A DNA stretch of 32,000 bases from Deinococcus sp. LM3 (GTDB lineage Bacteria; Deinococcota; Deinococci; Deinococcales; Deinococcaceae), in the NCBI RefSeq assembly GCF_002017875.1, contig NZ_MUFV01000005.1:75437-107436 (forward strand), given 5' to 3'. Each line of letters opens with the position of its first letter. Within the stretch, counting starts at the first letter, position 1. The position numbers were made by a program, and so were the translations under genes. Positions 10,526 to 32,000 of the stretch are shown one piece after another. The notes below the pieces were generated by a model. The model was given only the letters and a program-made list of their open reading frames with translations. It was not told the DNA's origin and searched no databases.

Positions 10526-13418
10526 TCCTGCCGACGTTGCTCAGGTCTTCACCACCGAATCCCGTCAGAAGCACGAGCGAATCTTCACGCTAACACACAC
10601 AAGCATGAACCGAATTCTCGTCTCGCACAACCGCGTCGGTCTTTCCAATGGCCAGTTTGTCGGTGAGCATGCAGTACTCGATCTGATTCAACAGTCTGCT
10701 CCGCTGGATAGCAATCGCGTCTGGTTCATCGTGGGAGAAACAGGCAGTGGCAAGTCTGAACTCTGCCAGTGGTTGGAGTACCAGTTGCGTGAACGGCACC
10801 TACCCCTGCACATCTCCAGGCGGCAAGCAAATCTCACCGGCATTCTCGATGTGCTGCACACCCATTTACCGTCCGGCCTTCAGGGGCAGACGACTGACCT
10901 GCCGCAGGACGTGTTGACGGATCACCTTCGCCTGCACCTCATGCTACGCGCCCACCGGGAAGGCCGCGGCCTGGGGTACGTCGAGCAGTTGCTGCCCTTT
11001 CTCCCTGACCTCGCCCGGCGGCTCTATCAACCGCTGGCTTCGTTTGAATTGCCACCCCACCTGCCTCCTGCACCCGCAGATGTTCCTTTCACGGCCTGGT
11101 TGTTCAGCGCCGTTCGCGAAGTCTTGGGTCTCCAGTCACTCGAACCCACCCTGCGTGCACTGGCCGAACATACCGCCCAACTCGGGAAACGTCCGGTCCT
11201 TTTGCTGGAAGACATCACCACTCTCGGCTTCTTACGTGACGATCTCCTCGACTACATTTTTGATCTCTCCGCTCCAGGGTTCGACGCGGTCATCGGGCTG
11301 ACCAGCGGTTTTGAAGATACCCACCTTCACCGCGACGGAGACCTTTCAGAGATGGCGTATGTCCGTGACCGTCTCAGTGCCCGGTTCCAGTTATCGCACA
11401 AGAGTGGAGAAACGTTTTTCCTGAACCAACCTCAAGATCTCCATGATCTGGTCCGGCGCTACCTGGGCTGTCTGCCGGCTCAGTCGGGCGGATCTTCGCC
11501 CGCGTTTTCAGGCCTGTACCCGTTTTCACCCACCATGCTCGACCGTCTATACACACATCTGGTCGAAAGTGGTAACCCGCGTCAAACGCCACGGAATCTA
11601 CTCGACGCTGTTATCAAACCTTCCCTGTGTCTGAATGAACCACCCCACGTCACTCTGTTCCGGGCACACCCTTATTTGCGCACGCCCAGCGTTACCTTTT
11701 ACCATCAAGACATTCCACCGGAACTCCAAGGACTGCTGTACTGGCATGGTGAGGTCCGGGACGGAAGTGTTCACGTTCCGGACGATGTGGCGCAGGCATT
11801 CGGTTATGATTCTGTTCCTCCGGTTCCCTGTTTTCCCAATCCCACAGGATCAACGTGGCTCTTCGGAAAGACGGCGGATGATCCAACAGATCTGTGGAAA
11901 GAAGCCATCCGTGAACTGCAAGCCTGGCAATCTGCGGGTGCTCCCTTTCCCAAACGCCAGTATCTCAAGCGCGGGATTGAACGACTTCTCCGGGCCCTGC
12001 TGGATCCGCGCCCTATCCAGCATCCCCGTCTGAATGCGCTCAGCGCAGATCCTTTAGAGTACACGCGCGGAGGCGATCACCTCCCTATTTACTTACCCGA
12101 GAGCGGTGACGTGCGTCCTGAGCATTGGCCGAGCCTGCACTTCCCCCGCACTCTTCCGCCCCAACTGCTTGAAGAATGCCTCACCTATGCGTTCTCCGCC
12201 AATCGCCATGTAGAATGCTTTGCCGATCTGGGACATACGCGACAGGTTCTCGAAGATGTTGTCTCCGATTTCCGGAGTGACGTGCGCGATCAGATCGGAC
12301 GTCTCACCGGACAATCATGGTCGAGGATGGTCTTTGGTCTCTGGTGGCTCTGTCAACATGTCTGCCAGGGCCATCCCCTGCAGATGAACGGCGGGGATGG
12401 CAAACGCGCCCTTTTGCAGTATGATCTCGCCCCAAAAGAACTGCGAACGGCCTGGTCGGATGAGCGTCGCCACCGCGTGTTACACCGCACTCACCAGGAA
12501 CTTCGGGCGAATCGTGATCACTACCGGGGCTTATTTGTGAGCCTCTTCCATCACAGAGACGACCTGATGGACCCCGTGCTCTATGAACAGGAGTGCCGAC
12601 AGTTCGATCCCAGTCTGTTCATGGATACCCTGGCCACGCTTTCACTCTCACGCCTCTCGGCGGCGCCCTACCGGCAACGGGGCAGTAAGCTCTCGTTGAC
12701 GCAACTCCTCCAACCCGCCGTGGAATACGCCGCAGCCCTCAAGGCATACGTCCTTCAAGACGAAGACCGTCTCCAGTGGACGGCCGTGGAACGCAGCCTT
12801 GAACACGCCATTCAACAGGCAGATGAATTGGACCTAGCCTGCAGACGTATTGAGCGTCTGGCTCATCAGGCCGGATGGACCATCACTGCCCCGCCGACCA
12901 GTCACACGTGGCGGTCCGGCGAGTGGGCAGGTGTCCTGCGTCAGTCCCAGCAGGCCAGTCGCGACTTCAAGAACCATCCTCCGATTGTGCAGATCACGGT
13001 GGCGCGCACGTGGCGGGAACGCCTGGAACAAATAGAACCGATCCAGTGGATGAACGCTGTTAAGGTGTTCCGAGACAGCGCTGAACGCATTCACCAGGAG
13101 AGGCACCCCGTTGAACAACTGCCCACACGACAGACGCATCATTCGAGTGACGTTCACCTGAATGATCTGGAAGATCTCGCCAGTACGCTGGCGGCGGCCG
13201 CGGACGCCGCCGACACCTTGCCACAGCATGTTGCCGAGCAGACGGCCCGTTCGATCCGTCGCCTGCAGGCGACGCAGACTCAGAGCATTGAAGCCGTCCT
13301 GGGCCGTCATGGCATTCACGCACCCGTGCAGATGGCGCGGCAGTCACGGGAGGCCAGTCTGGTTCTTCTGAGTGACCTGCTGGAATGCATGGTGGACCTC
13401 ATGGACTGCCCACCGTGA
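10509..13418 (+). CDS. Large P-loop NTPase (about 970 aa) of unknown family
   Basis: ATG at 10509 with a GGAGG SD 5 nt upstream (the track ORF starts earlier, at 10434). Walker A is WFIVGETGSGKSELC and Walker B-like is PVLLLEDITTLG. It has a long helical C-terminal region. It overlaps the upstream gene by 17 nt. Confidence 0.7.
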   Translation: MWIPFDPADVAQVFTTESRQKHERIFTLTHTSMNRILVSHNRVGLSNGQFVGEHAVLDLIQQSAPLDSNRVWFIVGETGSGKSELCQWLEYQLRERHLPLHISRRQANLTGILDVLHTHLPSGLQGQTTDLPQDVLTDHLRLHLMLRAHREGRGLGYVEQLLPFLPDLARRLYQPLASFELPPHLPPAPADVPFTAWLFSAVREVLGLQSLEPTLRALAEHTAQLGKRPVLLLEDITTLGFLRDDLLDYIFDLSAPGFDAVIGLTSGFEDTHLHRDGDLSEMAYVRDRLSARFQLSHKSGETFFLNQPQDLHDLVRRYLGCLPAQSGGSSPAFSGLYPFSPTMLDRLYTHLVESGNPRQTPRNLLDAVIKPSLCLNEPPHVTLFRAHPYLRTPSVTFYHQDIPPELQGLLYWHGEVRDGSVHVPDDVAQAFGYDSVPPVPCFPNPTGSTWLFGKTADDPTDLWKEAIRELQAWQSAGAPFPKRQYLKRGIERLLRALLDPRPIQHPRLNALSADPLEYTRGGDHLPIYLPESGDVRPEHWPSLHFPRTLPPQLLEECLTYAFSANRHVECFADLGHTRQVLEDVVSDFRSDVRDQIGRLTGQSWSRMVFGLWWLCQHVCQGHPLQMNGGDGKRALLQYDLAPKELRTAWSDERRHRVLHRTHQELRANRDHYRGLFVSLFHHRDDLMDPVLYEQECRQFDPSLFMDTLATLSLSRLSAAPYRQRGSKLSLTQLLQPAVEYAAALKAYVLQDEDRLQWTAVERSLEHAIQQADELDLACRRIERLAHQAGWTITAPPTSHTWRSGEWAGVLRQSQQASRDFKNHPPIVQITVARTWRERLEQIEPIQWMNAVKVFRDSAERIHQERHPVEQLPTRQTHHSSDVHLNDLEDLASTLAAAADAADTLPQHVAEQTARSIRRLQATQTQSIEAVLGRHGIHAPVQMARQSREASLVLLSDLLECMVDLMDCPP

Positions 13419-13559: not shown

Positions 13560-15545
13560 TTAATTCAGGAGGCGTTCCATGGGCCGCTCCAGGTTGTCCC
13601 GTCGTTCCCGGGCAGCCTCATAGCGGTCTCGTTTAACGAGGAGGCTTTCATCGCCGGCAAGGATACGGGCCTGCACGTCCTGGAGTGCCCGGAGGTACAT
13701 GTTGATGTTATGAACGGCGCGGCCCATGTTCGCTTCGTTGCCACCGTTGTAGGGACGGCCACTCGGGTCGCGTAATGTTCCACCCTGTGCCCGGGTGTCC
13801 CACCCTTCGGCGCGCATGGCAGAGCACGCAGGACAGTGGCAGGGCGGTAACTCATCGCTTCCAGGAACGTTCTCAACAATCCGGTACTTTTTGAGGAGGT
13901 TGGGGTCTTCCGGGACGTACTGAAGGAAGGATCCGGCCGTGAAGGCAGACATATACATGCTGGAACCGTCAAAGGAGTCAACACCCAGATGTGTGAGCGT
14001 GGCAGCCCATTTGATACTGGAAACCCCCAGGACGTGAATATACAGATCCGGCACCTGGGCCCGGTACTGTAAGGCGTCTTCAACGCACCGGTAAACAAAG
14101 TACGGATCACGACTTGATTTCAGGGCGAGACTGCCCAGGGCGATGTGCCGGTACCCGAGATCCAGGTAATGCTCCATCATTTCGTGCCGTTGCTCGAAGG
14201 ACCCGTGGGTGACGGCCATGAGACGGTGCGCACCGGCGAGGGGCTTCATGGCTCTTGCGAACTGATAGGAGATTTCAATTTTTTCGCGCGCAACCTGCGG
14301 ACTGTCGAGACCGTCAAGGATCATCATATCCGGGGAGACGATAATGTCACGTCCTTCCCGGGCCCCTGCATCCTCAAACAGTTTCATGGTGCCCTCTGGC
14401 GTCAGGGGTCCGTTGCGTTTTTTCAGGATGGGGTATGGCTCTGCCTTGTAACTCCAGGCGCCGCAATCGTAGATATTGCCCTCATCAGTTTGTGGCAAGG
14501 GATCACTGTTAGGGTTGTGATACGCCAGAGAGGTCAAGTACCCCCTGGGATCCGTTTCAATAAAGTTCCAGATGCGTTCCATCTTGGGGGTTGGCAACGG
14601 CGCCCCTGCGTGATCCTGTGTCAGTTTGAGCTTGTCACGGTTGTTAATCACCACTGTGAATCGTGCCCGCGGAGGCACCGCGAGTTCATGCTGGGCTTTC
14701 GGGTAAAACGCTTCACTGCTCAAGTTCAGAGGGTTGAAGCCCAGTCCGGTGCGGTGAATGCTGGGACCTGTGGTGACCGGCATGGGAGGCACTGAAGCTT
14801 CTACCTCAGCCTCTGACATGAGCGTTGGTGCCGTGCGGGCCGCCTGCCAGGTTTCCAGATAGGTGATGGCGCTCTGAGGATCGGCGTGCCAATCGTGCAG
14901 CACTTCTGGATGTTCTGCGACGGCCCGCGCGAGTTGATGAAACAAGAAGCCTTTCAGGCCAACCATACCGTATCCGAAGCGACGTGCATCCTTATTGACC
15001 AGAGGGAGAACAGCCTGCTTGGCGGCATGCTCGGGAAGAATGGCGGCACTCCCGCCACTGGCCAGAAAAATGAAGCTTTGATCTGGACGACTCTGCAGTG
15101 GGAGAAGGGCCGACTTCAGATAATTCTCGCCGAGCAGGAAAATGACAATATCATAAGACTTTATTCTTGCATTCAGGGCCTCGTGGATGCCCAGCTGCTT
15201 ACTCCAGTCTAAGACTTCCCGGCTTTTTAATTCGTTGAAAGACGTTTCGTAGGGGGCAATAAATTTATACTGATCGATTAAGCCATAACCGGCTGAGATG
15301 ATTTCCAGCCGACTGACAACACCTTTGATCTTCGAGAGAATATCAAAAGCTCGGGAGACCTGTTGGTGCTGCGCACCCGTGTATAAGCGCTTGGCTGAAG
15401 TTCGGTACTCCGCCAACTCTTGCTCACGAGCCCGAAGGTGATCTCCTCCCTTGCGGAAATCCTCTATCACAAGTTGATTTGGCGGTTTGTATAGCTTTGC
15501 GCCCGTACAAGAACTGATGACTAACAAGCTTGGGTACTTGGGCAT
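13560..15545 (-). CDS. Fusion protein: N-terminal YaaA/DUF328- or DUF6884-like domain plus C-terminal TGT-fold (DpdA-like) domain, paralog 2
   Basis: 661 aa. The N-terminal pattern is VISSCTGAKL...AKRLYTGAQH...IISAGYGLIDQYKFIAPYETSF. The C-terminal motifs are IYDCGAWS, IALGSLALK, IHVLGVSS, GVDSFDGSSMY and CHCPACS...HNINMY. The ATG at 15545 lies 2 nt after the queC stop (15548). Confidence 0.7.
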   Translation of the reverse strand: MPKYPSLLVISSCTGAKLYKPPNQLVIEDFRKGGDHLRAREQELAEYRTSAKRLYTGAQHQQVSRAFDILSKIKGVVSRLEIISAGYGLIDQYKFIAPYETSFNELKSREVLDWSKQLGIHEALNARIKSYDIVIFLLGENYLKSALLPLQSRPDQSFIFLASGGSAAILPEHAAKQAVLPLVNKDARRFGYGMVGLKGFLFHQLARAVAEHPEVLHDWHADPQSAITYLETWQAARTAPTLMSEAEVEASVPPMPVTTGPSIHRTGLGFNPLNLSSEAFYPKAQHELAVPPRARFTVVINNRDKLKLTQDHAGAPLPTPKMERIWNFIETDPRGYLTSLAYHNPNSDPLPQTDEGNIYDCGAWSYKAEPYPILKKRNGPLTPEGTMKLFEDAGAREGRDIIVSPDMMILDGLDSPQVAREKIEISYQFARAMKPLAGAHRLMAVTHGSFEQRHEMMEHYLDLGYRHIALGSLALKSSRDPYFVYRCVEDALQYRAQVPDLYIHVLGVSSIKWAATLTHLGVDSFDGSSMYMSAFTAGSFLQYVPEDPNLLKKYRIVENVPGSDELPPCHCPACSAMRAEGWDTRAQGGTLRDPSGRPYNGGNEANMGRAVHNINMYLRALQDVQARILAGDESLLVKRDRYEAARERRDNLERPMERLLN

Positions 15546-18779: not shown

Positions 18780-19673
18780 TCACCGCTGCAAGGTGCGGGT
18801 GGTGAGCGTGCTGAAGCGGGCAGTGGGGAGTGGGAGGGACGCGCCGATGGCCGCCGCGAGGTTGCACAGGGCCAGGTGAACGCGTTCGTGCGGGGTGAGG
18901 TGGGCGTGCCGGACCTGCGGGGCCGAGTAGAGACGGCCGTCCGCGGCGTACTTCACGTAGGAACTGGAATCCACGCTGTCCACGCCGAGCCGCGAGACCC
19001 GCCCGACGTGGTCCGGGTGGCCGATCCCGAAGGCGTGGATGGGCAGGTCACCAGCTGCGGCGCGGACAGCCCGGATCACGTCGTCCACCATGTCTGGTTG
19101 GGACATGCGTAGGACGAGCCCCCCGATGGCGACTCCTTCGAATCCAGCCTCCCGGTACTCCTGCGCGAGCTCCGCGGCGGCCTGCGCGTCCCAGCCCTGC
19201 ACGACCCCGTACAGGGGCAGGTCGGTGCGGCGGCGGTTGTGCAGGGCCCACAGCGCGTTGGCGCGCGTCAGGGCGTGATAGCGCCGGGCGTCGCGGGTGG
19301 GCAGACCGGGGGGAATGAGCAGGTCCAGGGTGAAGCCGACGTCCGCGACGCGTTCCTGCAGTTCCAGGACGCTGCTGGGTGTTATGCGCCGACCCTGGCA
19401 GTCGATCACGCCGAGTCCCGCGCGGGTGCGGGTCACGGTGGCGGCCGTGAAGACACTGGCGAACCCGCCGGAGTCCACGAGCAACGGCACGCTCAGGTCC
19501 GGCGCTTCCCGCGCGTCTTGCAGGAAGAACGCGCTGACCATGACCGCGGGTGCGAGCCGGGGCAGGTAGGGGCGGATCAGGTCGTCGAGGGGGTACTTCT
19601 CGCCGAAGGTCGTGACGGGCACGAACGCGGGGAAGTGCAGGGGGCCTTTGCGAGTGTTCAGGGTGCGGGTCAT
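18780..19673 (-). CDS. dpdA: TGT-fold DNA/RNA transglycosylase, DpdA-like, paralog 3 (no Zn cysteine cluster)
   Basis: 297 aa. Motifs LLVDSGGFASV, GVAIGGLV, IHAFGIGHPD and GVDSVDSSSY. It contains only two Cys residues, so there is no CxCxxC motif. It heads the que/yhhQ gene string. Confidence 0.65.
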   Translation of the reverse strand: MTRTLNTRKGPLHFPAFVPVTTFGEKYPLDDLIRPYLPRLAPAVMVSAFFLQDAREAPDLSVPLLVDSGGFASVFTAATVTRTRAGLGVIDCQGRRITPSSVLELQERVADVGFTLDLLIPPGLPTRDARRYHALTRANALWALHNRRRTDLPLYGVVQGWDAQAAAELAQEYREAGFEGVAIGGLVLRMSQPDMVDDVIRAVRAAAGDLPIHAFGIGHPDHVGRVSRLGVDSVDSSSYVKYAADGRLYSAPQVRHAHLTPHERVHLALCNLAAAIGASLPLPTARFSTLTTRTLQR

Positions 19674-20743: not shown

Positions 20744-21334
20744 TTAGACAGGTGGATGTAAAAGTCGCCGGGCCCGATCCATGGCTTGAACCAAAGGGTC
20801 TTGGTCACCGTGGCGCCGAAGCCACGGACCGGTTGGTCCGTGCGCGCCTTTCAATGCCTGAAGCCACAGAGTGCCGAGATAGTGCACAAGGACATGATCC
20901 AGATCCTCTGAAGGCGGTGCGGCGCTTATGAGCGAAGCAGATAGGCCTGAAGACTGATCCACCGGAGGCATAAATTCTTGCTCTGCGTCGTGCAGTAGAG
21001 TAAGACCTTGGTCTACAGCAGTTCCACGTTTCTCTGGAACTTCACCATGAGGCGGCAAGTGCACTTCCTGGACCCCCTGGGCGCTACGGTCTTCATACAG
21101 TCGGCTCAGCAGTTTGAGCGCGTCACGCACATCTACAGGTTTGGTACTGCACTGCACCACGGTCCAGGGCCCCAGTTGCCGTTCCTCAACTCCCGCCGCC
21201 AAGACGAAGGTCAGGCCCAGAGTGACTTCAGGGTAGGCCACAGGCAACGTCCCCACGTCGGCGTGTGTGAAGTTGTACTCCGCTTCAGGCAGGGAGGCCA
21301 TCTGCAACCGGCCAGCAAGTTCAAGAGCGTTCAT
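20744..21334 (-). CDS. Hypothetical protein (196 aa), last gene of the defence-like operon
   Basis: Its ATG overlaps the stop of the upstream helicase gene (ATGA at 21331-21334). No motif recognised. Its stop abuts the IS-remnant repeat. Confidence 0.55.
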   Translation of the reverse strand: MNALELAGRLQMASLPEAEYNFTHADVGTLPVAYPEVTLGLTFVLAAGVEERQLGPWTVVQCSTKPVDVRDALKLLSRLYEDRSAQGVQEVHLPPHGEVPEKRGTAVDQGLTLLHDAEQEFMPPVDQSSGLSASLISAAPPSEDLDHVLVHYLGTLWLQALKGAHGPTGPWLRRHGDQDPLVQAMDRARRLLHPPV

Positions 21335-23394
21335 AGCCCTTCCCGGATATCAACGCCACTGAGTTCTCGTAGTAACGGGGTCGCCTGTCCCTCTGTAGCG
21401 AGGAGGTACAACAACTCACCGCTACGGGTCATACCAACGTAGAAACGCATCCGCTCGCGTTCCATGAGAATGTCTTGCTCCTCACGCTCAGTTTCCGACC
21501 CCAAGGCGCCAAGGTGCTCAGCGTCTAAACCAACCAGCATGACCACAGGAAATTCCAAGCCTTTAGCAGTATGAATCGTCATCACTTTGACGCTTTCGCG
21601 CAGAACGTCCAGATCCTCCAGGACTGGATCCCAGTGGTCAGTGGGGATACCTTGCTTGGACAGGGCGTACGCGTATTCTTGGGCGAGCCCTTCCGTAGTG
21701 GCGATCACAGCAATATCACGCAAGCGTAAGAGGTTTTCTTCGCGAAATCGCGTGATTTCCTCAATGACGAAGCGTTTGATCTGGTGCTCCTCAACGAAGC
21801 GCATTAATATGGGACGTGGGCCACTGCGCTTAACTGACGCCATATCTATTAACTCACCGTGTTCCTTGAGATGCACATTTCGGGAGGCCAGATCAGCGGC
21901 GGTACGCACCACTTCGCGGGTATTGCGGTAATTGATTTTCAGCGCATACGAACGCCCCCGGACATCGAGGCCTACCTGCTTCCATGAAAACCCACGCGAG
22001 TACAAGCTCTGCGCGGCGTCTCCTAACACCAGGACGGTTTTGTGCTCAGTGCCTTGGCCCCGTGTGAGACGCTGCAACACCCGCAGTTCCAAGGGCGTGA
22101 GATCTTGCGCCTCGTCAACAATGACGTCGTCTACCACTTCGAGTTCGGGATGGTCAAGCAGGAGGCGGTACAGGCGGGTGACCGCGTCCCCCCAGTCCAT
22201 CAGGCCGCGTGCCTGCAAGTGAGCGTTGTAGGCACTTAGTACTTCCCAGACCACAGCGCGGGACAGTGGACTGAGTGCCTGCTTGCGCCCGTACCGAGGC
22301 GCTTGACGGTAAGCATCCATGTCCGGAAGCCCGAAGCCTTTTATCACTCGCTGAATTTCAGCGTAGAAGAACTCTGGAGCGCGCGCGAGCACCGCGGAGT
22401 GCCGCTGAGTTCTCACCTCATTGATCGCCTGCCGAATGAACTGCAGCGCCTGGTCGCGGTCCACGAGAGGCTGCTGGACTCCTGCCGCGTCCAGCATGCG
22501 CAGAGCCCATTGCCGGTAATCCTCAATGCGGAGGGTGGCTGGCAAGGTACCAGTCACTTCTTGCACCAGACTTCGGGTGACGCGTTGCAGTACGGGATTG
22601 TAAGTAATGAACAGTACCTGCCGTCCTGCCTGTGCGAGCCGGACAGCGCGGTGAATGCCTACGGTCGTCTTTCCACTGCCGGCCACACCTTTAAGCAGTG
22701 TGGCTCCAGTATGAATTCGGTTCACATGCTGTAGTTGCTCCTCGGCGAGCTCCAATAGAAGGTCCTGGATGCTGCCACGGGTGTACGCCTCCAGTTGCTC
22801 CAAAGACGCACGTTTGAATACACGGAAGGGATCCGCTAGGGGCTCGGCCGGGTCCGTCGCGAGCGCCAGAATCCACTCTTGGGTTTGTGCGGGCAGTCCG
22901 GGAAGTTTCAGGGCATCATCCAGGGTAGGCGCATCACGTAATGCGCGGGCTAATAGCGCGGGCGCTCCCAACAGCCGCAATTGATGCACAGTAAAGGCGC
23001 GCAGGGGAAAATCCGCGTCGCTTGGAGGATGGTTCCATGTGGTGGGCACCTGGAAGTCTGCCGTTTGTGGTGTGGCTGTGGCCTGCGGTTCAAGTTCCCA
23101 ACTCAGAAGGTCCTGGGTTCCAATATCCCGGGCGGTCAGTCGGTCGAAAACACTGTGAGGCACCACCCGCAGCAGCATGGGTTCACGGTTGCGTCCCCAC
23201 TGGAAGAGCATGCGCCAGTTGTCATTCACCCGGCAATACCAGGCGTCCATCAATTCCAGGCGGCGCACCTGCAGGCCGGTGGCCTGCGGATGCGTCAGAA
23301 GGGTTTTCACCGTACTGATGATGGCCGGCTGCATCGGCAACGCCGCGTTATGTTTCAGATCATCCAGGAAACGGGGGCTCACAAGCATCGTCAT
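21331..23394 (-). CDS. UvrD/Rep-type SF1 helicase with an N-terminal RelE/ParE-like domain
   Basis: Helicase motifs LLKGVAGSGKTTVG (I), VIVDEAQDL (II), KINYRNTREV, MTIHTAKGLEFPVVML and FYVGMTRSGELLYL. The first ~85 aa (...LELMDAWYCRVNDNWRMLFQWGRNREPMLLRVVPHSVF) follow the RelE/ParE toxin-fold pattern. Confidence 0.8.
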   Translation of the reverse strand: MTMLVSPRFLDDLKHNAALPMQPAIISTVKTLLTHPQATGLQVRRLELMDAWYCRVNDNWRMLFQWGRNREPMLLRVVPHSVFDRLTARDIGTQDLLSWELEPQATATPQTADFQVPTTWNHPPSDADFPLRAFTVHQLRLLGAPALLARALRDAPTLDDALKLPGLPAQTQEWILALATDPAEPLADPFRVFKRASLEQLEAYTRGSIQDLLLELAEEQLQHVNRIHTGATLLKGVAGSGKTTVGIHRAVRLAQAGRQVLFITYNPVLQRVTRSLVQEVTGTLPATLRIEDYRQWALRMLDAAGVQQPLVDRDQALQFIRQAINEVRTQRHSAVLARAPEFFYAEIQRVIKGFGLPDMDAYRQAPRYGRKQALSPLSRAVVWEVLSAYNAHLQARGLMDWGDAVTRLYRLLLDHPELEVVDDVIVDEAQDLTPLELRVLQRLTRGQGTEHKTVLVLGDAAQSLYSRGFSWKQVGLDVRGRSYALKINYRNTREVVRTAADLASRNVHLKEHGELIDMASVKRSGPRPILMRFVEEHQIKRFVIEEITRFREENLLRLRDIAVIATTEGLAQEYAYALSKQGIPTDHWDPVLEDLDVLRESVKVMTIHTAKGLEFPVVMLVGLDAEHLGALGSETEREEQDILMERERMRFYVGMTRSGELLYLLATEGQATPLLRELSGVDIREGL

Positions 23395-23404
23395 GATTTG
23401 ACCT

Positions 23405-24205
23405 CTACCGGTAGAAACCTGCTAGGGCATCCAGCAGGGGTTTGAATGCCGCTTCGTTGGCAACAGTCGGGTGATTGGCCAGGGCGAAGAAGTCGGCACT
23501 AGGTAAGGTGCGTTTCTTCGGAACCATGTCGCGATCCGTGAGGTCATACTGGTTACGTCGCCAACTGTGGGCCAGGAATTCTTCGGCCGCTGCTCTAAGC
23601 CCATCAAGAGGCTCATCGCTGCGTACCTCCGCGACCAACTCTGCGTTGTAGGCGAGGCCGCCGTTCGTGAAATTGGCACTGCCGAATAAAGCCCCCGACG
23701 GCAACCAAAGCAACTTGGCGTGTAGGGCGTCCCGGTACGACACCTGCGCGCCAAGTTGCGCCAGTTCCTCTGCGAACAGCACGGTGTCCGCGTGATTCAG
23801 AAATTCGCGTTTCAGCTCTGTACTGCGTTCCCTCAGGCCGCGCAGCACTTCATCCTGCAGGTCGAAGTCCATATCCTCGTTCGCCTGCACGCGCCGCACC
23901 TGCTCCGCCGTGAGTTGGTACTCCGCCAGGGCAGGTAAGGTCACCAGTTCATGCGGAGGTTTCACAATCACATGAATCAAGTGCTTCTGACCAAGCAGGC
24001 GCAGCAGGTCTTTCAGGGTGACGCTCTCCCGGTGTGTCCCGAAGACACTCCGGTACGGGCCCAACGACCGAATGTCGAACTCGACGTTTTTCAGCCACGG
24101 CGTAATCAGCCACACGTCACTCGGCGCGCAATCAAGCGCTTCAAGCATCAGGCGCACCATCTGGTTCTTCAGGCGGTCGGTCCGATCGGTTGCGTGGAAA
24201 ATCAC
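23405..24205 (-). CDS. PLD-superfamily (single HKD) nuclease, DrmC/DpdK/Nuc-like
   Basis: LHAKLLWLPSGALFGSANFTNGGL is an HxK...GSxN motif, and there is only one copy. 266 aa. The GTG start overlaps the upstream stop (GTGA at 24202-24205). Confidence 0.75.
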   Translation of the reverse strand: MIFHATDRTDRLKNQMVRLMLEALDCAPSDVWLITPWLKNVEFDIRSLGPYRSVFGTHRESVTLKDLLRLLGQKHLIHVIVKPPHELVTLPALAEYQLTAEQVRRVQANEDMDFDLQDEVLRGLRERSTELKREFLNHADTVLFAEELAQLGAQVSYRDALHAKLLWLPSGALFGSANFTNGGLAYNAELVAEVRSDEPLDGLRAAAEEFLAHSWRRNQYDLTDRDMVPKKRTLPSADFFALANHPTVANEAAFKPLLDALAGFYR

Positions 24206-27200
24206 AGCGCTTCCTGCCGGTACAACACAGTGCGCAAGGTTAGGTGCTCCGGATCAAACACGCGTCCCTGCTGCTGCAGCCCAGCCCTTGCAAAGGCGCG
24301 CACCAGTTGGTCACTGAGGTGGCCCTGATGCTCGTGCAGGACGAACCCTCCATGAGTGTCGGCCAGACGAACGACCTCCGCCACATCCAGATCCTCACCG
24401 CGAACGGTGATGGGCGCGGTCAGCACCTCGTGAGCGCGTTTAAGCAGCGTCCGCGACACGTTGTGGCGGGTTACGTCGATGTGGCCTTGGTCGCAGGACC
24501 CTGCCAAGCAAGCCGGGCAGGCATCCACGCAGGTAGACAGCGACCAACTTTCCACCTGGGCAAGGAAGCGGTCGTCGGCCGTCATCTCCTCCTCGCCCTC
24601 CTCTTCAACCAACACCTGTTGGAAATGCGTGCGGTACACCTGCAAGAGCCGCTTCAGGTGAGGTAGGTTCCGGTCCTCTTTCAAAAGGGTCAGGGCGTAC
24701 CCGGCGAGTTCCTGCGGCAAAGGCGTCCGGTGGAACCGGGCACTGAGCTCCGACTCCAGATCCAGCAGTTCCAGCAGCACATCGAGGTGCGCAAAGCGTT
24801 CCCCATTTACGTGCACCTCAGAGGTCAGCACGGTCGCCAGGTGCATCAGTTCAGGACTGTCGTCCCGCAACAGGCCGTCTGTCGCTTGAACCAGTGCGCG
24901 GCGCAGTCCGTCATCTTTCCGTTCGTGCGCGGGCAAGGCCAGCAACACCTGCACCTCGTGCGCAATGGGGGTGCGACGATTCGGTGCGAGCACTGCTTTA
25001 ACGAACTGCTGCTCTTCCGCCACGGGGCACTCGAGGGTATAGCGCCACCAAGCGGTGACGTGATGGCCTGTGCGCTCGCCTGCGGGATGTTCACCCATGA
25101 CCCGCGCGGCTGCGCGGGTGCTGCCCGCGCCATCCTGATTTCGCTCGTACACGTAGAACGCATGGTCCTGAGGGTCGTGTCCATGCGTGATATGCAACTG
25201 TGTGCCGGAGCCAATCTGGTGATGGTCGGCGCTGCCCTGCATCATAAACATGTTCCGTACCGCGTGCTTCAGCGAGTGAACGAGCGTGTCACGGACGTAC
25301 GCACTGACCTGCGCTTTGTTCTGAATGCGGGCGAACAACCGCCGCAGTTTCTCGTACGCCCGGTCGTCTTGCCACGTGACCCTGGCCTGCTCCAGGAAGT
25401 CCGGGTGGAGCGTGCGGTGGTCTGCCCAGTACCGCTGCGCGCCCCGCACCAGTGTCTGCCACCCGTCAGGATCCCGCAGAGCTGCTAGGAATTCCGGCCC
25501 GCTTTGCCCCTGCGCCCGTGCTTCTGCACGCATGGTGCACAACACGTCCGCCATCCGGCGTTGCGTGAAGGTGTTCAAGCCGTCTTCGACGCCTTCTGCC
25601 CACGGCTCACTTTTAAGGAGGTAGCGCAAGAACTGGTCCTGCAAATGCACTTGCGTGCGGACGTCGGCCCACTGCTGCTGCGCGATTGCCTGCACCGCCT
25701 GACTGAGTACCTGCGGATCGTACGGCACGCGAAGCCCTTCGGTGCATAAGTCGTACCCGTACAGTAGCGGCTCGCCGTCATGCTCACTCACGTACCGCAC
25801 CAGGTTGTGACCCCGGCCCGCCTGCGGGTCTTCACCTTGAGGGTGGCGTTTGTGTAACACAATCGTCGCTTCCGCCCCGTACTGCACTTCCCATGCAGCC
25901 AAACGCGAGCGCTGCCCGTCCTGCTCGCCGTAGTAATACTCCAGTGGTTGCACCAGGCTGCCGAACAAGGGCGGCACCGGGACGCGCAACCTCGCCTCAC
26001 CTAACGGGTGCACGGCCGAGAAAGACAACGGATAACTGTTGCTGTCAGGGGACACCACCCGCCATCCGTCCTCGAGCAGGGCTTGTTGAGCCTGTGCGGT
26101 AGCCTCTTCCCTCAACTGCCTCAACTCCACACTGCCGTCCGGACGTTTCCGGCCGTACGCCTGGGCCCCTTGCACTGGTGATTTGGGGTTGTTGGGGTCG
26201 AGCCGGCCAAATGACCACAACTCCAGATACCGCAGGCGGTAAAACCGCTTTGGCATCTCCCCATACAGGCGACGCACGCCAAGGGGCATGTACTGCTCGA
26301 AGGCGTCTCCCAGGCCACTGGCGGTTGGAAGGTCTTTGATCAGGGCCGGCTTGAATGGTCCATATCCTCCCCCTTCCCGTTTCTTATATCGCTCCATCGC
26401 CATGGCGTTTTGTACGATCACACCGTTGACCCGTACGGTCGGGGACCGCCAGTGCAGCAGGTGCGACGTGCCGTACCGCCTGGTGACGCGCCCAGCACCA
26501 AATTCGCTGAATGTGAGGGCAACGTCCTCCTTGACAAAGTTCCAGTCCATATCTGCCCTTGGCGGAGGCACCATCACCTGCACGACCGGCAGGTTGACAC
26601 TGCTGAACAGGTTCTCCGGGATGTCCGGGCACAGTTGCAGCAGACTTACTGGCCGGGTTCGAGTGGGCCGGTCTGCCCGGTGACGCACCTCCGGATCCAG
26701 CAGGGTCGCCTGGAACCACTCCCACAACGCTTGCCACGTACGGTACCCCTCCTGCTGCCGTAAGGTCGCTGCAATTACCCGTTCGTATCCATTCGTGATG
26801 AAGGGGTAGCGGGCGTCCAGGCGGGTCAACTCGCCAAAAATGGCGTCCAGGTGGTTCTGCAGCGGTGTGCCGACTGGCAGGGCATACCAGAGCCGGCCCG
26901 TCCGCTGGGTCAGTTCATCAAAGAGCAGGGCCACCGCATGGAAACGCTGAATAAAGTCATTCTCCGGATTCAGCGCTGGTTCGTAATCGGCCGGATCGGT
27001 GAGGGCTTCAGGATTTTGGAAGTAAAATGCGTCGCGGTAACTGCTGCGACTGAGCGTCACGGCTGTAATCGGCCGGTCGCTCAGATCCCGGCCTGCCCGG
27101 CCCTTTTTCTGAACAAACGAAGCGATGTTACTCGGGGCATGATGCTGCATGACGAACTGGATACTGGGGTCGTCATAACCTACCTCCAGACTGGTTGTGG

Positions 27201-29538
27201 CAAAGATGATGTCGCGGTTGAGCACCCGGCCGTCTTGGCCACCGCCGCTGAACACTGGATGGTCTGCCGAGGTTAGTGCCGTTGGCGCGGCGCCCACCCG
27301 AGTACGGCCTTCGTTGAACTGATGTGGATCCTGCGCTTCAAAGTACCAGTACTCCCCGTCCCGGAAAGCGGCACTGGCCTGCACGTCACCGGCAGGGGTC
27401 CTGAGACGAAGTGCTGCCAGATTCAACCGGCTCTCCGCGTCTCGGAACTCCACTGTCAGCTTCTTCAATTTCGAGATGCTGTCCTGGAAGATCAAGGTCC
27501 GGTGCTTGGCCGGCGTCTGTCCCTCGGCCGGACGGCGCACCATGTTGTGCGCGATGGTCATGATGGTCTGAATAGCCGCTGACGCGTCTCCAATCACTTT
27601 GCCGCGCGAGAACGATTCCGGACGAATAAACAGAAAGTAGTCGCGGCCCTGCGCAGGATCGTAATCCTCCGGTTGCGGTTCGATGGCGCTCACGCGGTAT
27701 TCCGGCACCCCGGTCAGCTTCGACCAGAACTGGCCAGGGCGACCAATCGTTGCACTCATACCGATCAGCAGGGGCGTCCTCCAGGTGGTAGCCTCATCCG
27801 CCGTGCCGCGGGCATAGCCGTACATGGCATTGTCAATTCGGTATTTCAGTCGGCGCAGCAAAGCCGCGATCTGCGATCCATGAATACCGCTGTACAGGTG
27901 AATTTCGTCCATTACGACTGCGCGCGGCGGGTGAAACGCCGGCCGCTCAGACCACTGGCGCGGCAATCCGAACACGCCTAACGCTTTCGGGTCCATCATC
28001 CAGCGGTGCAGCATCTCCGTCGTGATGATCAGTAGGTCAGGCGGCGCCTGCAGCACTGACTCCCGGGTGGCCTGGAACGTGTCGAGTTGCCAGCCCCCCA
28101 CGTCGAACCCTCCGTCTGAGGTCAAGGTGGCGCGGCCATCGGCCTGCACCTGCGCCAGCACTGGGGAACCGCCTGAGCCTGTGAAGTACGGCACCACATG
28201 CCGTTGCCCGTCCTCACTTCGGTCCCAGTGCCACTTGCGCTCGTTGTTCGGACCGCTGCCCTGCAGATCTCCCAGGGTCCCCGGCGTGTTGCCGAACACC
28301 ATTCCCACACTCAATGGCCGCAGGCCCAGGCCCTGGCCGGCCGGTCCGCGCATGGCACGATTGACGTGCGCCACATACTCACACAAGCGCTCCAACTGGT
28401 TCTTGGCGAGGTTCTGACGGGGGTAGACCAGCATGACTTTGACGCCCCGACGGTCATCCCGGATGATTTCCTCCAGCAGACCCGTGAGCAAGGGCAGCAG
28501 GGCCGCCTCCGTCTTGCCACTGCCGGTGTTTCCCGTGATGACGAACGCCCCACCGGTCTGCGTGAAGTAAGCGTCGGTCAGTTCCGTGAAGCTGCGCGCC
28601 TGAACGTTCGTGACGTCCACCTGGTCCAGAGGACGCCCCAGCGCACTCGAAAAGCCTTCCCCCAGCAGGCGTGTGGCTGCCCGCACCTTCCGTCCACGGT
28701 GGGTGCCCTGCACTCCGTCCAGCACCTCGCGGAAGCGCGTCTCCCGCCGGAGCCGTTCGCGGTCCTTAAACCGCACGCGCAGGCTCTGCACCAGATAAGG
28801 GGCTTGCGCTTCGTCCCCGTCCCGGAAGCGCTGCTTCACATTCTTCAGCAGGCGCACCATTTCACTGATGCGCGACCGGTATAGTCCGCTCCTGGGTTCT
28901 ACCACGTACCGTTTGGCCACTAGGGAGGCCAGCAGGCCTGGAATCGCCGAATCACCCAACTGGGCCCGCACTTCCTCACTCTGAGCTACCTCCTGAGCGG
29001 TGGTATACGTCTCATAAAGCCCAAAATTGATGCGCCGCTCCTCGATATTTTCCAGTGCGTTCAGCACCCTCACTTCATCAGCGGTCAACCCTTTCCCGGA
29101 TGCGCCCGTGGCGGGCACCTCCTCCCCTAAGGCCTGAACCTGCCGTACTCCCGGAGCCGCGGTGGAGGGAGCCGCCCCAGCGCCCAACCGCACTTCCCCT
29201 TTGGCTTCGTGGATCTGCCCTGAGGCGTGCAGAGGAAGCAGGACCGCCAGGAGAGCGTCCCGGGTATACACCCGGTCAAGGAGGCCACGGTTCACCGGAA
29301 GCAGGGTGAGGACGTTCGCTTCATTGAGTTTCAGGCGGACACTCGGAGAGAAGCCCTTCAACGTCTTCTGGTCATACCCTTCTAACAGCGGATCATCCGC
29401 CAGTTCAGTTCGCAAAGCGTGTACAGCAAGACCAGTTAATCTCGCCGCCTCAGACAGGAAAATCGAGCGGAACTTGGCGTCCCGGATGGCAGTAGCAAGC
29501 ATGTGACGAGACGCATCAGTAAGCACAAAAGACCTCAA
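24202..29538 (-). CDS. Giant DExH-box SF2 helicase fused to a C-terminal DUF1998/MrfA-type Zn-binding module (resembles a DrmA+DrmB fusion)
   Basis: 1778 aa. Helicase motifs ITGNTGSGKTEAALLPLL (I), VVMDEIHLY (II), GMSATIG (III), TTSLEVGYDD (V) and QKKGRAGRD (VI). The C-terminal region carries HSLKHAVRNMF...YVYERNQDGAGSTR and CVDACPACLAGSCDQGH. The exact start is uncertain (TTG at 29538, or an internal GTG or ATG). Confidence 0.8.
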   Translation of the reverse strand: MRSFVLTDASRHMLATAIRDAKFRSIFLSEAARLTGLAVHALRTELADDPLLEGYDQKTLKGFSPSVRLKLNEANVLTLLPVNRGLLDRVYTRDALLAVLLPLHASGQIHEAKGEVRLGAGAAPSTAAPGVRQVQALGEEVPATGASGKGLTADEVRVLNALENIEERRINFGLYETYTTAQEVAQSEEVRAQLGDSAIPGLLASLVAKRYVVEPRSGLYRSRISEMVRLLKNVKQRFRDGDEAQAPYLVQSLRVRFKDRERLRRETRFREVLDGVQGTHRGRKVRAATRLLGEGFSSALGRPLDQVDVTNVQARSFTELTDAYFTQTGGAFVITGNTGSGKTEAALLPLLTGLLEEIIRDDRRGVKVMLVYPRQNLAKNQLERLCEYVAHVNRAMRGPAGQGLGLRPLSVGMVFGNTPGTLGDLQGSGPNNERKWHWDRSEDGQRHVVPYFTGSGGSPVLAQVQADGRATLTSDGGFDVGGWQLDTFQATRESVLQAPPDLLIITTEMLHRWMMDPKALGVFGLPRQWSERPAFHPPRAVVMDEIHLYSGIHGSQIAALLRRLKYRIDNAMYGYARGTADEATTWRTPLLIGMSATIGRPGQFWSKLTGVPEYRVSAIEPQPEDYDPAQGRDYFLFIRPESFSRGKVIGDASAAIQTIMTIAHNMVRRPAEGQTPAKHRTLIFQDSISKLKKLTVEFRDAESRLNLAALRLRTPAGDVQASAAFRDGEYWYFEAQDPHQFNEGRTRVGAAPTALTSADHPVFSGGGQDGRVLNRDIIFATTSLEVGYDDPSIQFVMQHHAPSNIASFVQKKGRAGRDLSDRPITAVTLSRSSYRDAFYFQNPEALTDPADYEPALNPENDFIQRFHAVALLFDELTQRTGRLWYALPVGTPLQNHLDAIFGELTRLDARYPFITNGYERVIAATLRQQEGYRTWQALWEWFQATLLDPEVRHRADRPTRTRPVSLLQLCPDIPENLFSSVNLPVVQVMVPPPRADMDWNFVKEDVALTFSEFGAGRVTRRYGTSHLLHWRSPTVRVNGVIVQNAMAMERYKKREGGGYGPFKPALIKDLPTASGLGDAFEQYMPLGVRRLYGEMPKRFYRLRYLELWSFGRLDPNNPKSPVQGAQAYGRKRPDGSVELRQLREEATAQAQQALLEDGWRVVSPDSNSYPLSFSAVHPLGEARLRVPVPPLFGSLVQPLEYYYGEQDGQRSRLAAWEVQYGAEATIVLHKRHPQGEDPQAGRGHNLVRYVSEHDGEPLLYGYDLCTEGLRVPYDPQVLSQAVQAIAQQQWADVRTQVHLQDQFLRYLLKSEPWAEGVEDGLNTFTQRRMADVLCTMRAEARAQGQSGPEFLAALRDPDGWQTLVRGAQRYWADHRTLHPDFLEQARVTWQDDRAYEKLRRLFARIQNKAQVSAYVRDTLVHSLKHAVRNMFMMQGSADHHQIGSGTQLHITHGHDPQDHAFYVYERNQDGAGSTRAAARVMGEHPAGERTGHHVTAWWRYTLECPVAEEQQFVKAVLAPNRRTPIAHEVQVLLALPAHERKDDGLRRALVQATDGLLRDDSPELMHLATVLTSEVHVNGERFAHLDVLLELLDLESELSARFHRTPLPQELAGYALTLLKEDRNLPHLKRLLQVYRTHFQQVLVEEEGEEEMTADDRFLAQVESWSLSTCVDACPACLAGSCDQGHIDVTRHNVSRTLLKRAHEVLTAPITVRGEDLDVAEVVRLADTHGGFVLHEHQGHLSDQLVRAFARAGLQQQGRVFDPEHLTLRTVLYRQEAL

Positions 29539-29575: not shown

Positions 29576-30280
29576 TTATTGCAGGCGAACCGTGAAGGCT
29601 GGCAGGAACCCGTGCTCCTGAAGCCAAGCCCACACCTCTGGGGTGAGGGCCGCGAGGTTGGCCTGGCCTTGAACCACGGCCTGTAAAAACGTCACCACGC
29701 CGGGCGGCAGGTGGGTGCCCACCAGGTCGGCTCCCAACCGGTCATACTCTGTAGCCAAGCCTTTGGCTTTGTGCGCCTGTTCCGCTGTGACCGGGAAAGT
29801 GCGCCGGAGTTGATCGTGCAGTTGGTACACCTGCCGCAGGGCGCTCGCCGCCGGCGCCAGGCCCGCCTGGCGCTCAAATACCGCCAGGACTGGCGCCGGT
29901 ACCGGCGGTTCGATGCTGGCGAGGTAGGTCTCCCAGGCCTCGCGGGCCGCGAAGGTCAAGTCGTCACTGGCCTTCTTGACGTTCCGCAGGGCCACCGAAA
30001 AATCGTTCTTAATCAGCGTTCCTGCGTCGACCTGCGCGCCTCTATGAACGAAAGCCACATTCCGCAACGCCGCGTCAACACTGGCTGGTAACGCCTCATT
30101 CGCCACCAGGCCGGCGGCCCGGAGCGTGCTCCACGCGAGTGAAGCGCCCTGCACCTGCCCCTTGACCGCCTGGAGTTGCTCCTGACGCGTCGTGTATTGC
30201 CGGATGCTCTCCTGCACGTCCGTGAGCTTGTGCAGGTCTTCGGCACTTTCCTTGAGCGCCTGGGCACGTTCCAACATCAT
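29576..30280 (-). CDS. Hypothetical protein (234 aa)
   Basis: Its ATG overlaps the stop of the upstream gene (ATGA at 30277-30280). It is helical and Ala/Leu-rich, with no motif recognised. Confidence 0.55.
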   Translation of the reverse strand: MMLERAQALKESAEDLHKLTDVQESIRQYTTRQEQLQAVKGQVQGASLAWSTLRAAGLVANEALPASVDAALRNVAFVHRGAQVDAGTLIKNDFSVALRNVKKASDDLTFAAREAWETYLASIEPPVPAPVLAVFERQAGLAPAASALRQVYQLHDQLRRTFPVTAEQAHKAKGLATEYDRLGADLVGTHLPPGVVTFLQAVVQGQANLAALTPEVWAWLQEHGFLPAFTVRLQ

Positions 30281-32000
30281 GCGGGTTCTCCTTGGGTTTG
30301 AACGCCCGACAAGGTCTCTTCGATGGACCGCAGGTCTTTCAATAAGATCTGCGCCACTTGAACCGCGCTGGCGTCCGGGGTGGCGATGGACGCGCGCTGA
30401 CGGGCGTACCGCAGGCTGTCATCCAGGACCTGGTTCAACTGCTTGACCACCTCTTCACTGCGCGCCGCGTCAGCCCAGGCAAAACTGGCCGCCGTGGTAA
30501 GGCGCCGCTCCAGGTCGGCGGCGTCGACGAGGCGCCGCGCGGCCTTGAGCAGACTGAGCAGGGGCAGGCGGTTAAACTGGCGCAGCAGTTGTGCCACCCC
30601 TTCTGGCGCCATGCTGCGCGGCAGTTGCAGCACGCCCGCTTCGCCCGCCGCGCGGAACGCTTCGTTCAAGGCAACAGCCGTCTCACTCAGTTGGTCGGCG
30701 CTGCCCAGGATCGATAGCACCTCCTGTTGCCAGCGGTCCGCTTCTTGCTGCGCCGAGACGCTGGCCGCCCGCCAGGCTTCAAACAGAGTGTTCCGGTCCT
30801 CGGCCAGGCCCAGCCGGTCATGCTCGGGAGGCTGCGCCCGAACAGCCGCCTGTTTTGCCGTGCTTTCAATCTGTTGTAGCAGCAGGGCCGCGTTGACCAG
30901 CCGCGCGGCGCCCCCTTTGCGGACGCCAGCAAATACCAGCAGTTGCCGGGCGGCTTTCGGATGCAGTCGGCGCACCTGTTCAAGTTGACGGCGCCAATCC
31001 AATGGCGCTTCAGCCGGCACTTCCGGCACAGTCTGCAGCATCGCGCCTATGACCCTCGGGTCTCGGTCTCCCACTTTGATGCGGCCAAGCGCGACGGCGC
31101 TCCAGTACAGCGTTTCGACGGCCACTGGCAGCACCGACGGGCGCGGACCAGTGGGGGACAATTCCACCCGGACGTACTGCGTCCACAGTTCCACTGCTTC
31201 CCGGAATCGCCACGCTGCATCGGGAATCTCGCTCGGCCACCGTCCCGTCTCCTTGAAGGTGTAATACGCACCCAGCGCCACCGCCACGTCCACCGGGCTC
31301 TGGCCTGGCAGGGGCAGGTTGAGCCGAACCGCTTCACGGCCCAGATTGAAGTTGTTCGTCTGCCCTTCGAAATAGATGCTCTCGGCAGACCACACACCAT
31401 CGTCTTTCAGCGCAACCTCATGCAGGTTCTCCGCTTCGAAAACGGCAAAATCACTGATTGCCTCATGAGCGAGTCGGCGCAGCTCCCGGGTGTGGGTTTG
31501 CGTAAGCGGCCGTCCACTCGCCCAGTTCTGCAGCGCCTGCAACAACGCAGGTGTGGCCGCTTTCTTTCGCTTTTTGTCGTCCGGGTCATCGGGCGTTCCT
31601 ATAAGCGGGCCGTCAAGCAGTGGCGGCGCCTCCCCTACCTGGGGAATCTGGAATGCGGCGTGCAGGCCTTCGGGTAGATTCTGCAACCGGGGCGGCACAG
31701 GACCCCACAGCCGCATCACCGCTTCGATACGGTCGGCTTCCTCGGCGTCGATTTGCAACTCTTCCAGGCGGGCTTTGTCGCCCAGAGGCAGTGACGCTAC
31801 GGTGACAGCCTTGCCATAGGTGTCTTGCACAGCCGGTGAAGGGAAGGCCGCATCTGGCAGTCGCTCCTGGGCGTCGCGCAACACATCACGCATGCCGCGC
31901 AGGAGGCCGCGGGGATTGAAGCCTTCCGGATTTTCGTGGTCCCCCACGATGTCAATCAGCCGGTTGTTAAACGGATACAGGCCTACCGGTCCCTCAGTTC
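30277..32000 (-). CDS. Hypothetical large protein; the 5' end runs off the right window edge
   Basis: The track starts it at the GTG at 31947. However, the same frame stays open to base 32000 (...TEGPVGLYPFNNRLIDIVGDHENPEGF...), so the true start is probably outside the window. No catalytic motif lies in the visible 574 codons. Confidence 0.6.
   Translation of the reverse strand, partial: TEGPVGLYPFNNRLIDIVGDHENPEGFNPRGLLRGMRDVLRDAQERLPDAAFPSPAVQDTYGKAVTVASLPLGDKARLEELQIDAEEADRIEAVMRLWGPVPPRLQNLPEGLHAAFQIPQVGEAPPLLDGPLIGTPDDPDDKKRKKAATPALLQALQNWASGRPLTQTHTRELRRLAHEAISDFAVFEAENLHEVALKDDGVWSAESIYFEGQTNNFNLGREAVRLNLPLPGQSPVDVAVALGAYYTFKETGRWPSEIPDAAWRFREAVELWTQYVRVELSPTGPRPSVLPVAVETLYWSAVALGRIKVGDRDPRVIGAMLQTVPEVPAEAPLDWRRQLEQVRRLHPKAARQLLVFAGVRKGGAARLVNAALLLQQIESTAKQAAVRAQPPEHDRLGLAEDRNTLFEAWRAASVSAQQEADRWQQEVLSILGSADQLSETAVALNEAFRAAGEAGVLQLPRSMAPEGVAQLLRQFNRLPLLSLLKAARRLVDAADLERRLTTAASFAWADAARSEEVVKQLNQVLDDSLRYARQRASIATPDASAVQVAQILLKDLRSIEETLSGVQTQGEPA

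Follow-up and report, generated by a model that had tools for sequence, protein, structure and literature searches.

A probable divergent DpdJ of the YprA helicase family, fused to its DUF1998 module, in a Dpd island of Deinococcus sp. LM3

To which defence system does a bacterial protein belong when it carries a DExH helicase and a DUF1998-type zinc module in a single chain? The question is raised by a stretch of 32,000 nucleotides from contig NZ_MUFV01000005.1 of Deinococcus sp. LM3 (hereafter the window), in which the reverse strand holds one uninterrupted open reading frame (ORF) at 24202-29538, of 1778 codons when counted from a TTG. An initial annotation had set this ORF against DISARM, where the helicase (DrmA) and the DUF1998 protein (DrmB) are separate genes, and that interpretation as a whole is partly supported by our analysis. 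We conclude, at a probability of roughly 0.88, that the ORF is the DpdJ of a divergent clade, the YprA-family superfamily 2 (SF2) DExH motor of a plasmid-borne Dpd (7-deazaguanine) modification/restriction system.

The best PADLOC families for the protein were two DpdJ profiles (PDLC02895 and PDLC02896; 6.3e-134 and 1.8e-119), with DrmA reaching only 4.6e-17 and DruE matching locally. DpdJ was also the best NCBIfam family (NF041067; 372.5 bits), over model positions 1-855 only. Moreover, when a profile of 37 orthologues was aligned by hhalign with 39 canonical DpdJ sequences, homology was full-length, covering 1373 columns (probability 100%, E 2e-104) from the third winged helix-turn-helix (wHTH) unit to the C-terminal domain (residues ~155 to ~1751; template 8-1469 of 1509). 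Since this alignment extends there, the C-terminal half is also homologous to canonical DpdJ and is too diverged for HMMER. Several points weigh against the assignment. The NCBIfam score does not reach the DpdJ equivalog cut-off of 800 bits and the HMMER match is confined to the N-terminal 855 positions, the neighbouring DpdI and DpdK likewise fall below their NCBIfam cut-offs, and the mechanism that we propose below is drawn wholly by analogy. Because the DpdJ, DpdI and DpdK scores are all under equivalog cut-offs, the protein is not a canonical DpdJ.

The ORF lies in a co-directional string of genes encoding DpdE, DpdF, DpdG, DpdH, a DpdI-like protein, the DpdJ-like protein, a DpdK-like phospholipase D (PLD) nuclease, a RelE/HigB-like-UvrD helicase and a 196-aa ORF. 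DpdH (612 bits), DpdF (858), DpdE (942) and DpdG (81) all exceed their NCBIfam cut-offs, dpdG, dpdF and dpdE being situated further upstream (locus L001, 714-10150), and the SNF2 gene that scores 942 bits with DpdE scores only 163 bits with DrmD. The same window also contains QueC, QueE, a queuosine-precursor transporter and three TGT/DpdA-like genes, whilst no methyltransferase, whether DrmM-type or PglX-like, was found among the operon genes. A position after DpdE-I and before DpdK, together with genes for 7-deazaguanine synthesis and insertion, is found both here and in the orthologous loci L002-L005. Given these neighbours, the 7-deazaguanine genes, the lack of a methyltransferase and DpdJ as the best family, the operon is therefore Dpd and not DISARM, a correction of label that matters for annotation. 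The scores within the restriction operon form a mosaic, in which the I-J-K module is of a different and more divergent lineage than E-H.

Residues ~330-830 had been credited with all SF2 motifs, and we could place these at 336-817: motif I (GNTGSGKT, 336-343), motif II (DEIH, 544-547), motif III (SAT, 595-597) and motif VI (QKKGRAGR, 810-817). Pfam DEAD (2e-16) and Helicase_C (2.8e-6) each exceeded its cut-off, and the protein thus has the SF2 core of DExH type, with these four motifs, that characterises the YprA family. The AlphaFold2 (AF2) model of the N-terminal half (m6bc1e2c90f5b) has a predicted local distance difference test score (pLDDT) of 91.9, and in Foldseek it was most similar to DrmA (7s9v_A; E 1e-19) and MrfA (E 1.3e-17). 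The first ~150 residues form an extension that is present in 25/37 orthologues. As modelled, the wHTH-like unit that follows at residues 153-222 is the counterpart of the MukF-like wHTH reported in the YprA homologues of Dpd (Bell et al., bioRxiv 10.1101/2025.09.15.676423). Within RecA1, hhalign showed the insertion to be homologous to the Cys-rich zinc module of canonical DpdJ, but cysteine-free here.

The presence of a DUF1998 (MZB) module in the C-terminal part is less obvious from standard searches. With the native sequence, the Pfam MZB profile (PF09369) scores 19.1 bits against a cut-off of 24.2, with profile positions 1-58 matching residues 1423-1493, and the match ends ~180 residues ahead of the Cys motif CVDACPACLAGSC at residues 1670-1682. 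The score is below threshold because a helical insertion of ~160 aa divides C1504 from the knuckle; once this insertion (C1504-C1670) was excised in silico, MZB matched end to end (1-80/80) at 31.5-34.1 bits. Even in native form, a Pfam scan of 27 orthologues identified MZB in 9 of them at E <= 0.01 (best 1.7e-4). The cysteines are highly conserved among orthologues, C1504 being present in 37/37, C1670, C1674 and C1677 in 36/36 and C1682 in 33/36, which in sequence amounts to the conserved four-Cys cluster of the YprA family, with putative zinc binding. Sequence searches of the PDB, either with the single protein or with a 37-sequence profile, recovered helicase cores only and never reached the MZB of MrfA or DrmB. 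The AF2 model of residues 860-1778 (md8e2efef6653) has a pLDDT of 90.8 and a predicted template modelling score of 0.90, and its sole extended high-probability Foldseek match in the PDB was DrmB (7s9v_B; probability 0.99, 364 columns, E 0.015), with the low TM-scores to be expected when a multidomain query carries insertions. Taken together, the full MZB match after excision, the conserved cysteines and the structural match to DrmB show that the DUF1998 homology is real, and that the helicase core is followed by the OB-CON-DUF1998 (MZB) canopy of the YprA family. The initial annotation had named a lack of DUF1998 homology in profile searches as what would refute it, and the end-to-end MZB match speaks to the contrary. 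It had also proposed a comparison of an AlphaFold model with DrmA:DrmB, in which the N half and the C half now have 7s9v_A and 7s9v_B as their respective structural equivalents.

A single polypeptide with both modules is thus borne out by the intact frame, the SF2 motifs and the MZB match after excision. Other details required revision. The DUF1998 region was said to end in the Cys motif, and this motif does lie within MZB, but a further domain of 68 aa follows. Likewise, the ~320 N-terminal residues and the ~500 aa in the middle, described as devoid of motifs, are assigned by AF2 to wHTH units, an N-terminal region (NTR) ahead of RecA1, a helical domain, OB-CON and helical insertions (Table 1). 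No known modified-base reader fold of the EVE or SRA type was detected in these segments. The modelled domain layout agrees item by item with the architecture published by Bell et al. for Dpd YprA homologues, in which a MukF-like wHTH stands at the N-terminus, the canopy holds two larger helical insertions and an ALBA-like domain lies at the C-terminus, our wHTH and ALBA labels being taken from predicted topology and from that work.

Table 1. Features of the dpdJ-like gene, its predicted domains and adjoining genes (window coordinates; residues counted from the TTG).
Feature	Position	Strand	Basis and remarks
Whole ORF, DpdJ-like YprA-family helicase	24202..29538	-	1778 codons from TTG; stop codon 24202-24204
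Likely true start, GTG (residue 5)	29524..29526	-	1774-aa product; GAGG 6 nt upstream
Two wHTH-like units (H-H-H-beta-beta twice), residues 1-120	29179..29538	-	AF2 pLDDT mostly >90, DSSP order; topology only; outside the DpdJ profile
Third wHTH-like unit, residues 153-222	28873..29082	-	AF2/DSSP; NCBIfam DpdJ model begins at residue 159
NTR before RecA1, residues 223-310	28609..28872	-	AF2; conserved RSRISE..VKQRF block
RecA1, residues 311-620, motifs I-III	27679..28608	-	Pfam, motif search, Foldseek to DrmA and MrfA
Beta-rich RecA1 insertion, residues 420-490	28069..28281	-	DSSP; hhalign to canonical 'vCPylrCP..C..' block
RecA2, residues 621-859, motif VI; insertion at ~705-775	26962..27678	-	Pfam, motif search, AF2
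Helical domain after RecA2, residues 860-970	26629..26961	-	AF2; position described by Bell et al.
Beta-rich OB-CON of canopy, residues 971-1274, taken as one block	25717..26628	-	DSSP; Foldseek to DrmB
Helical insertion 1, residues 1275-1407	25318..25716	-	AF2; 116-172 aa across all orthologues
MZB/DUF1998 part 1, residues 1408-1509, ends in invariant C1504	25012..25317	-	Pfam MZB profile 1-58
Helical insertion 2, residues 1510-1665	24544..25011	-	AF2; separates first MZB Cys from the rest; median 164 aa
MZB part 2, residues 1666-1710	24409..24543	-	Knuckle C1670-x3-C1674-x2-C1677-x4-C1682 plus helices
C-terminal beta-alpha-beta-alpha-beta-beta domain, ALBA-like topology, residues 1711-1778	24205..24408	-	DSSP; ~68 aa in 36/37 orthologues
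DpdK-like PLD nuclease	23405..24205	-	DpdK 1.3e-12, 47.6 bits vs cut-off 100; GTG start overlaps dpdJ stop (GTGA)
DpdI-like gene, directly upstream	29576..30280	-	NCBIfam DpdI 3e-14, model 3-239/239, 53.6 bits vs cut-off 150
DpdH C-terminal part, runs past window end	30277..32000	-	DpdH 612 bits

The gene itself is real and intact, its frame being free of indels in separate assemblies at 100%, 99.8% and 94.5% identity (three sequence versions). The product is probably 1774 aa, translated from the GTG at 29526 rather than from the TTG, because a GAGG lies 6 nt upstream of this GTG, gene callers on the source and related assemblies begin there (1774-aa calls P0002 and P0125), and the 94.5% identical protein of D. 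aerophilus also begins at GTG and has T in place of M13, which is therefore not conserved.

Are orthologues fused or split? Some 36 orthologues, among them one from Calidithermus (P0008), are single proteins of 1610-1784 aa with 40-58% identity and at least 90% coverage. Within the Deinococcota, 6 of 364 species genomes carry the gene, five of them as one open frame, and in the sixth (G108) it lies in two pieces, broken near residue 1031 in the same way as the copy on a plasmid of Deinococcus taeanensis (CP083460.1; L002 ~13066-13110). In the latter, where dpdJ is annotated as two genes (1027 and 736 aa), the frame is broken by a shift of one base within the OB region, away from domain boundaries, at which frame 1 reads '...YWRPPYCV*' and frame 0 '...LRVNGG..VIAMERYK' where the window sequence has 'HWRSPTVRVNGVIVQNAMAMERYK', and the remainder of the island is syntenic (DpdE-K, UvrD helicase, small ORF). 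Natural split orthologues were also sought with the C-terminal half as query; the three matches were a frameshift product, a fragment at a contig end and a piece of a fragmented contig, and none was a true split. Every split encountered in the orthologue search that had been suggested is therefore explained. In other phyla the orthologues occur in Dpd clusters (QueC, QueD, QueE, GCH-I, TGT, DndB-like, DpdD, DpdG), always with the PLD gene following them.

Fusion of this kind is not evidence of a new architecture because the helicase-DUF1998 fusion is ancestral. Bell et al. state that OB-CON-DUF1998 and the helicase core typically form one protein, DISARM being the only branch in which the former is consistently a separate gene. 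The fusion is hence the rule in the YprA family (MrfA, DruE, DpdJ) and the DrmA/DrmB split of DISARM the exception. The contrast drawn at the outset is correct in that DISARM has two separate genes, but the split is a peculiarity of DISARM, the operon here is Dpd, and the novelty implied for the fused state does not hold, this state being usual in the family.

Could the ORF nevertheless come from a variant of DISARM with DrmA and DrmB fused in one gene? Its best Foldseek neighbours are DrmA and DrmB (PDB 7S9V/7S9W), the closest solved structures for both halves, a PLD nuclease gene follows it as DrmC does in DISARM, and PADLOC returns weak DrmA and DrmC matches. However, DrmAB is the only solved structure of the Dpd/DISARM branch among the top Foldseek matches, the DpdJ matches surpass those to DrmA by more than 100 orders of magnitude, and sequence similarity to DISARM proteins is only local, whereas profile homology to canonical DpdJ is full-length. 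DISARM comprises two genes and marks self by methylation; here, DpdE-I and DpdK and 7-deazaguanine genes are the neighbours, a single ORF is found both in the window and in the ~36 orthologues, and neither DrmMI nor DrmMII was seen among the operon genes. The trigger loop, EVE-like N-terminus and PLD with a four-helix bundle that Bell et al. describe for DISARM also differ from what is found here, and their phylogeny puts Dpd outside DISARM. We regard a fused DISARM as decidedly unlikely. Another possibility is that an error of assembly or sequencing made one ORF out of two adjacent genes, and the annotation of the D. taeanensis orthologue as two genes might be cited in its favour. This would be very unlikely, with a chance close to nil, because the frame is indel-free in the related assemblies, the ~36 orthologues and five of the six carriers in the phylum are unbroken, and the D. 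taeanensis copy is interrupted by a 1-nt frameshift within the OB region; moreover, AF2 folds both halves confidently over every junction.

Membership of the YprA family and the MZB module are also common to MrfA, and the protein might accordingly be a housekeeping DNA-repair helicase of the MrfA/YprA type with no role in defence. There is only a faint chance of this, as the chromosome has a YprA of its own with a canonical, uninterrupted MZB (60 bits), and the gene in question resides in a Dpd island on a 162-kb contig with ParA and is patchily distributed (6/364 Deinococcota species genomes). That contig, which carries the ParA partition gene, has a GC content of 63.6%, the main chromosome contig one of 69.6%. 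Just as faint is the prospect that the protein belongs to the ARMADA/Druantia branch or to a Dpd-ARMADA hybrid like BRIGADE. A UvrD gene with a weak RelE/HigB-like part at 21331-23394 recalls the RelE-GajB-like helicase that is a hallmark of ARMADA type II and not of Dpd (Bell et al.), and PADLOC gives local DruE matches. Yet these DruE matches are short, no PglX-like methyltransferase is present, and the island has one YprA-like gene, in contrast to the archaeal BRIGADE with its usual two. From predicted secondary structure and Pfam/PADLOC matches alone, neither a helical BrxA-like domain after RecA1, nor a beta-barrel zinc module in RecA2, nor a C-terminal nuclease domain was evident.

A DpdJ of a divergent clade accommodates these observations best when set beside its relatives. 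Canonical DpdJ (NF041067, ~1500 aa), from dpdA-K of the Salmonella Montevideo type, is encoded between DpdI and the PLD nuclease DpdK as here, and shares the wHTH, NTR, RecA1 with its insert, RecA2, helical domain, OB-CON, two helical insertions and a small C-terminal domain. By BLAST, however, identity is only ~28% and limited to the helicase half. Canonical DpdJ has lost the MZB cysteines at all five positions and has 4-6 cysteines in the RecA1 insert, whilst the clade described here keeps the former, is without the latter and, in most members, bears the extra tandem wHTH N-terminus of ~150 aa. The proteins behind PDLC02895/PDLC02896 and DpdJ-like proteins of ~2100 aa are ~29% identical over 87% of the length and retain C1504 and the C-C-C knuckle, but they have an added N-terminal DNA2-like SF1 helicase (AAA_11/AAA_12) and keep the RecA1-insert cysteines, both of which are absent here. 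MrfA/YprA of B. subtilis (PDB 6ZNP), the founding DUF1998/MZB helicase, has a DExH core and OB-CON-MZB in one chain with a four-Cys zinc site, as here; it is a DNA-repair protein of ~750 aa with an uninterrupted MZB, and lacks the wHTH array, the helical insertions and the ALBA-like end.

We placed these proteins in an alignment and tree of 118 sequences. Its rooting is unreliable, because YprA from the same genome served as the sole outgroup and its branch measures >5 substitutions per site. One superclade (support 0.94) contains the clade described here, P0038-40, the SF1-fused DpdJ-like proteins of ~2100 aa and P0057; the other (support 1.0) contains canonical DpdJ, a clade of ~1520 aa and P0058/59. 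The MZB cysteines (C1504 and the C-C-C knuckle) occur in every clade of this sample but the canonical one. RecA1-insert cysteines number 4-6 in the canonical and SF1-fused clades, 0-1 in the clade here and 0-2 in the ~1520-aa clade. Each lineage sampled thus keeps one or both zinc sites, with no complete sequence lacking both and one truncated sequence having C1504 only. According to Bell et al., Dpd-like systems that branch more deeply keep a four-Cys cluster; we make no claim as to which clade is deeper because the outgroup branch is very long. The ~2100-aa clade (P0042-P0055), with its DNA2-like SF1 helicase at the N-terminus, keeps both zinc sites. P0038 (2245 aa) has the same kind of SF1 fusion but groups with the clade here (support 1.0).

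The retention of MZB cysteines, the loss of RecA1-insert cysteines and the additional tandem wHTH in most members make the clade mildly notable. It has so far been annotated merely as 'DEAD/DEAH box helicase', the NCBI DpdJ model misses it, and the Pfam MZB model misses its zinc module because the 160-aa insertion splits MZB. Since the opposite zinc sites are kept, the clade offers a natural comparison with canonical DpdJ, and such a comparison could help to define the roles of the zinc modules and of the peripheral DNA-binding domains in Dpd restriction.

How might such a protein act? The Dpd island would mark self DNA with dPreQ0/dADG and restrict unmodified DNA. In S. Montevideo, dpdD-K as a set give restriction, individual protein roles not being assigned (PMC10164549). 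In DpdJ, OB-CON-MZB would form a canopy over the two RecA domains within the same chain, the counterpart of the separate DrmB of DISARM. Judging from MrfA and DrmAB, the motor may load on single-stranded or damaged/invading DNA and translocate 3'->5' on ATP whilst the canopy clamps the tracked strand. The putative zinc cluster (C1504, C1670, C1674, C1677, and C1682 in most members) may stabilise the canopy in a structural role. The translationally coupled PLD nuclease DpdK would be the likely cutting partner, on DNA without dPreQ0/dADG, and the wHTH units and the ALBA-like end probably offer additional surfaces for contact with DNA or partners. We infer the polarity, the substrate, zinc binding, the partnership with DpdK and the discrimination of modified DNA from these analogues only. 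One could speculate further that DpdJ-like helicases bear two alternative zinc modules, the RecA1 insert and the split MZB, and that the variable periphery (three wHTH units, helical insertions, ALBA-like end) reads 7-deazaguanine status, which would make DpdJ a modification sensor and not just a motor; we consider this unlikely, if conceivable.

Lastly, the surroundings of the gene hold several other features. The gene after dpdK, at 21331-23394 (-), encodes an SF1 helicase of 687 aa that is UvrD/GajB-like and whose N-terminus weakly resembles RelE/HigB (PF05015, E 0.011), and after it, at 20744-21334 (-), comes the 196-aa ORF, which has no family match. This pair follows DpdK here and in the Deinococcus-type loci L002 and L003, and not in L004/L005. 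Elsewhere in the window is a second, very divergent Dpd-like trio, in which a TGT/DpdA-like gene is accompanied by genes resembling DpdG (36 bits) and DpdH (994 aa, 41 bits). A third TGT paralogue is also present, as is a protein of 661 aa whose TGT domain is C-terminal, such that three TGT-like genes fall within 11 kb (coordinates for the trio and TGT region 8859-13418 (+), 13560-15545 (-) and 18780-19673 (-)). A separate YprA/MrfA-like helicase of housekeeping type has an open frame of 895 aa on the chromosome (G000:C1:1097773-1098006 (-), L006). An hhalign comparison of the family profile with this protein, a single-sequence template, was credible over the helicase part only, the rest being noise, and was left unused. 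The MZB of this chromosomal helicase is canonical and uninterrupted, at 60.4 bits ('KTCCQNPHGCFECIAVSRC'). To the right of the window (L001 10695-16004), a WYL-domain regulator lies divergently upstream of dpdE, and after it come genes for an RNase HI fusion protein and a transposase of the Tn3 family, a neighbourhood consistent with a mobile island.

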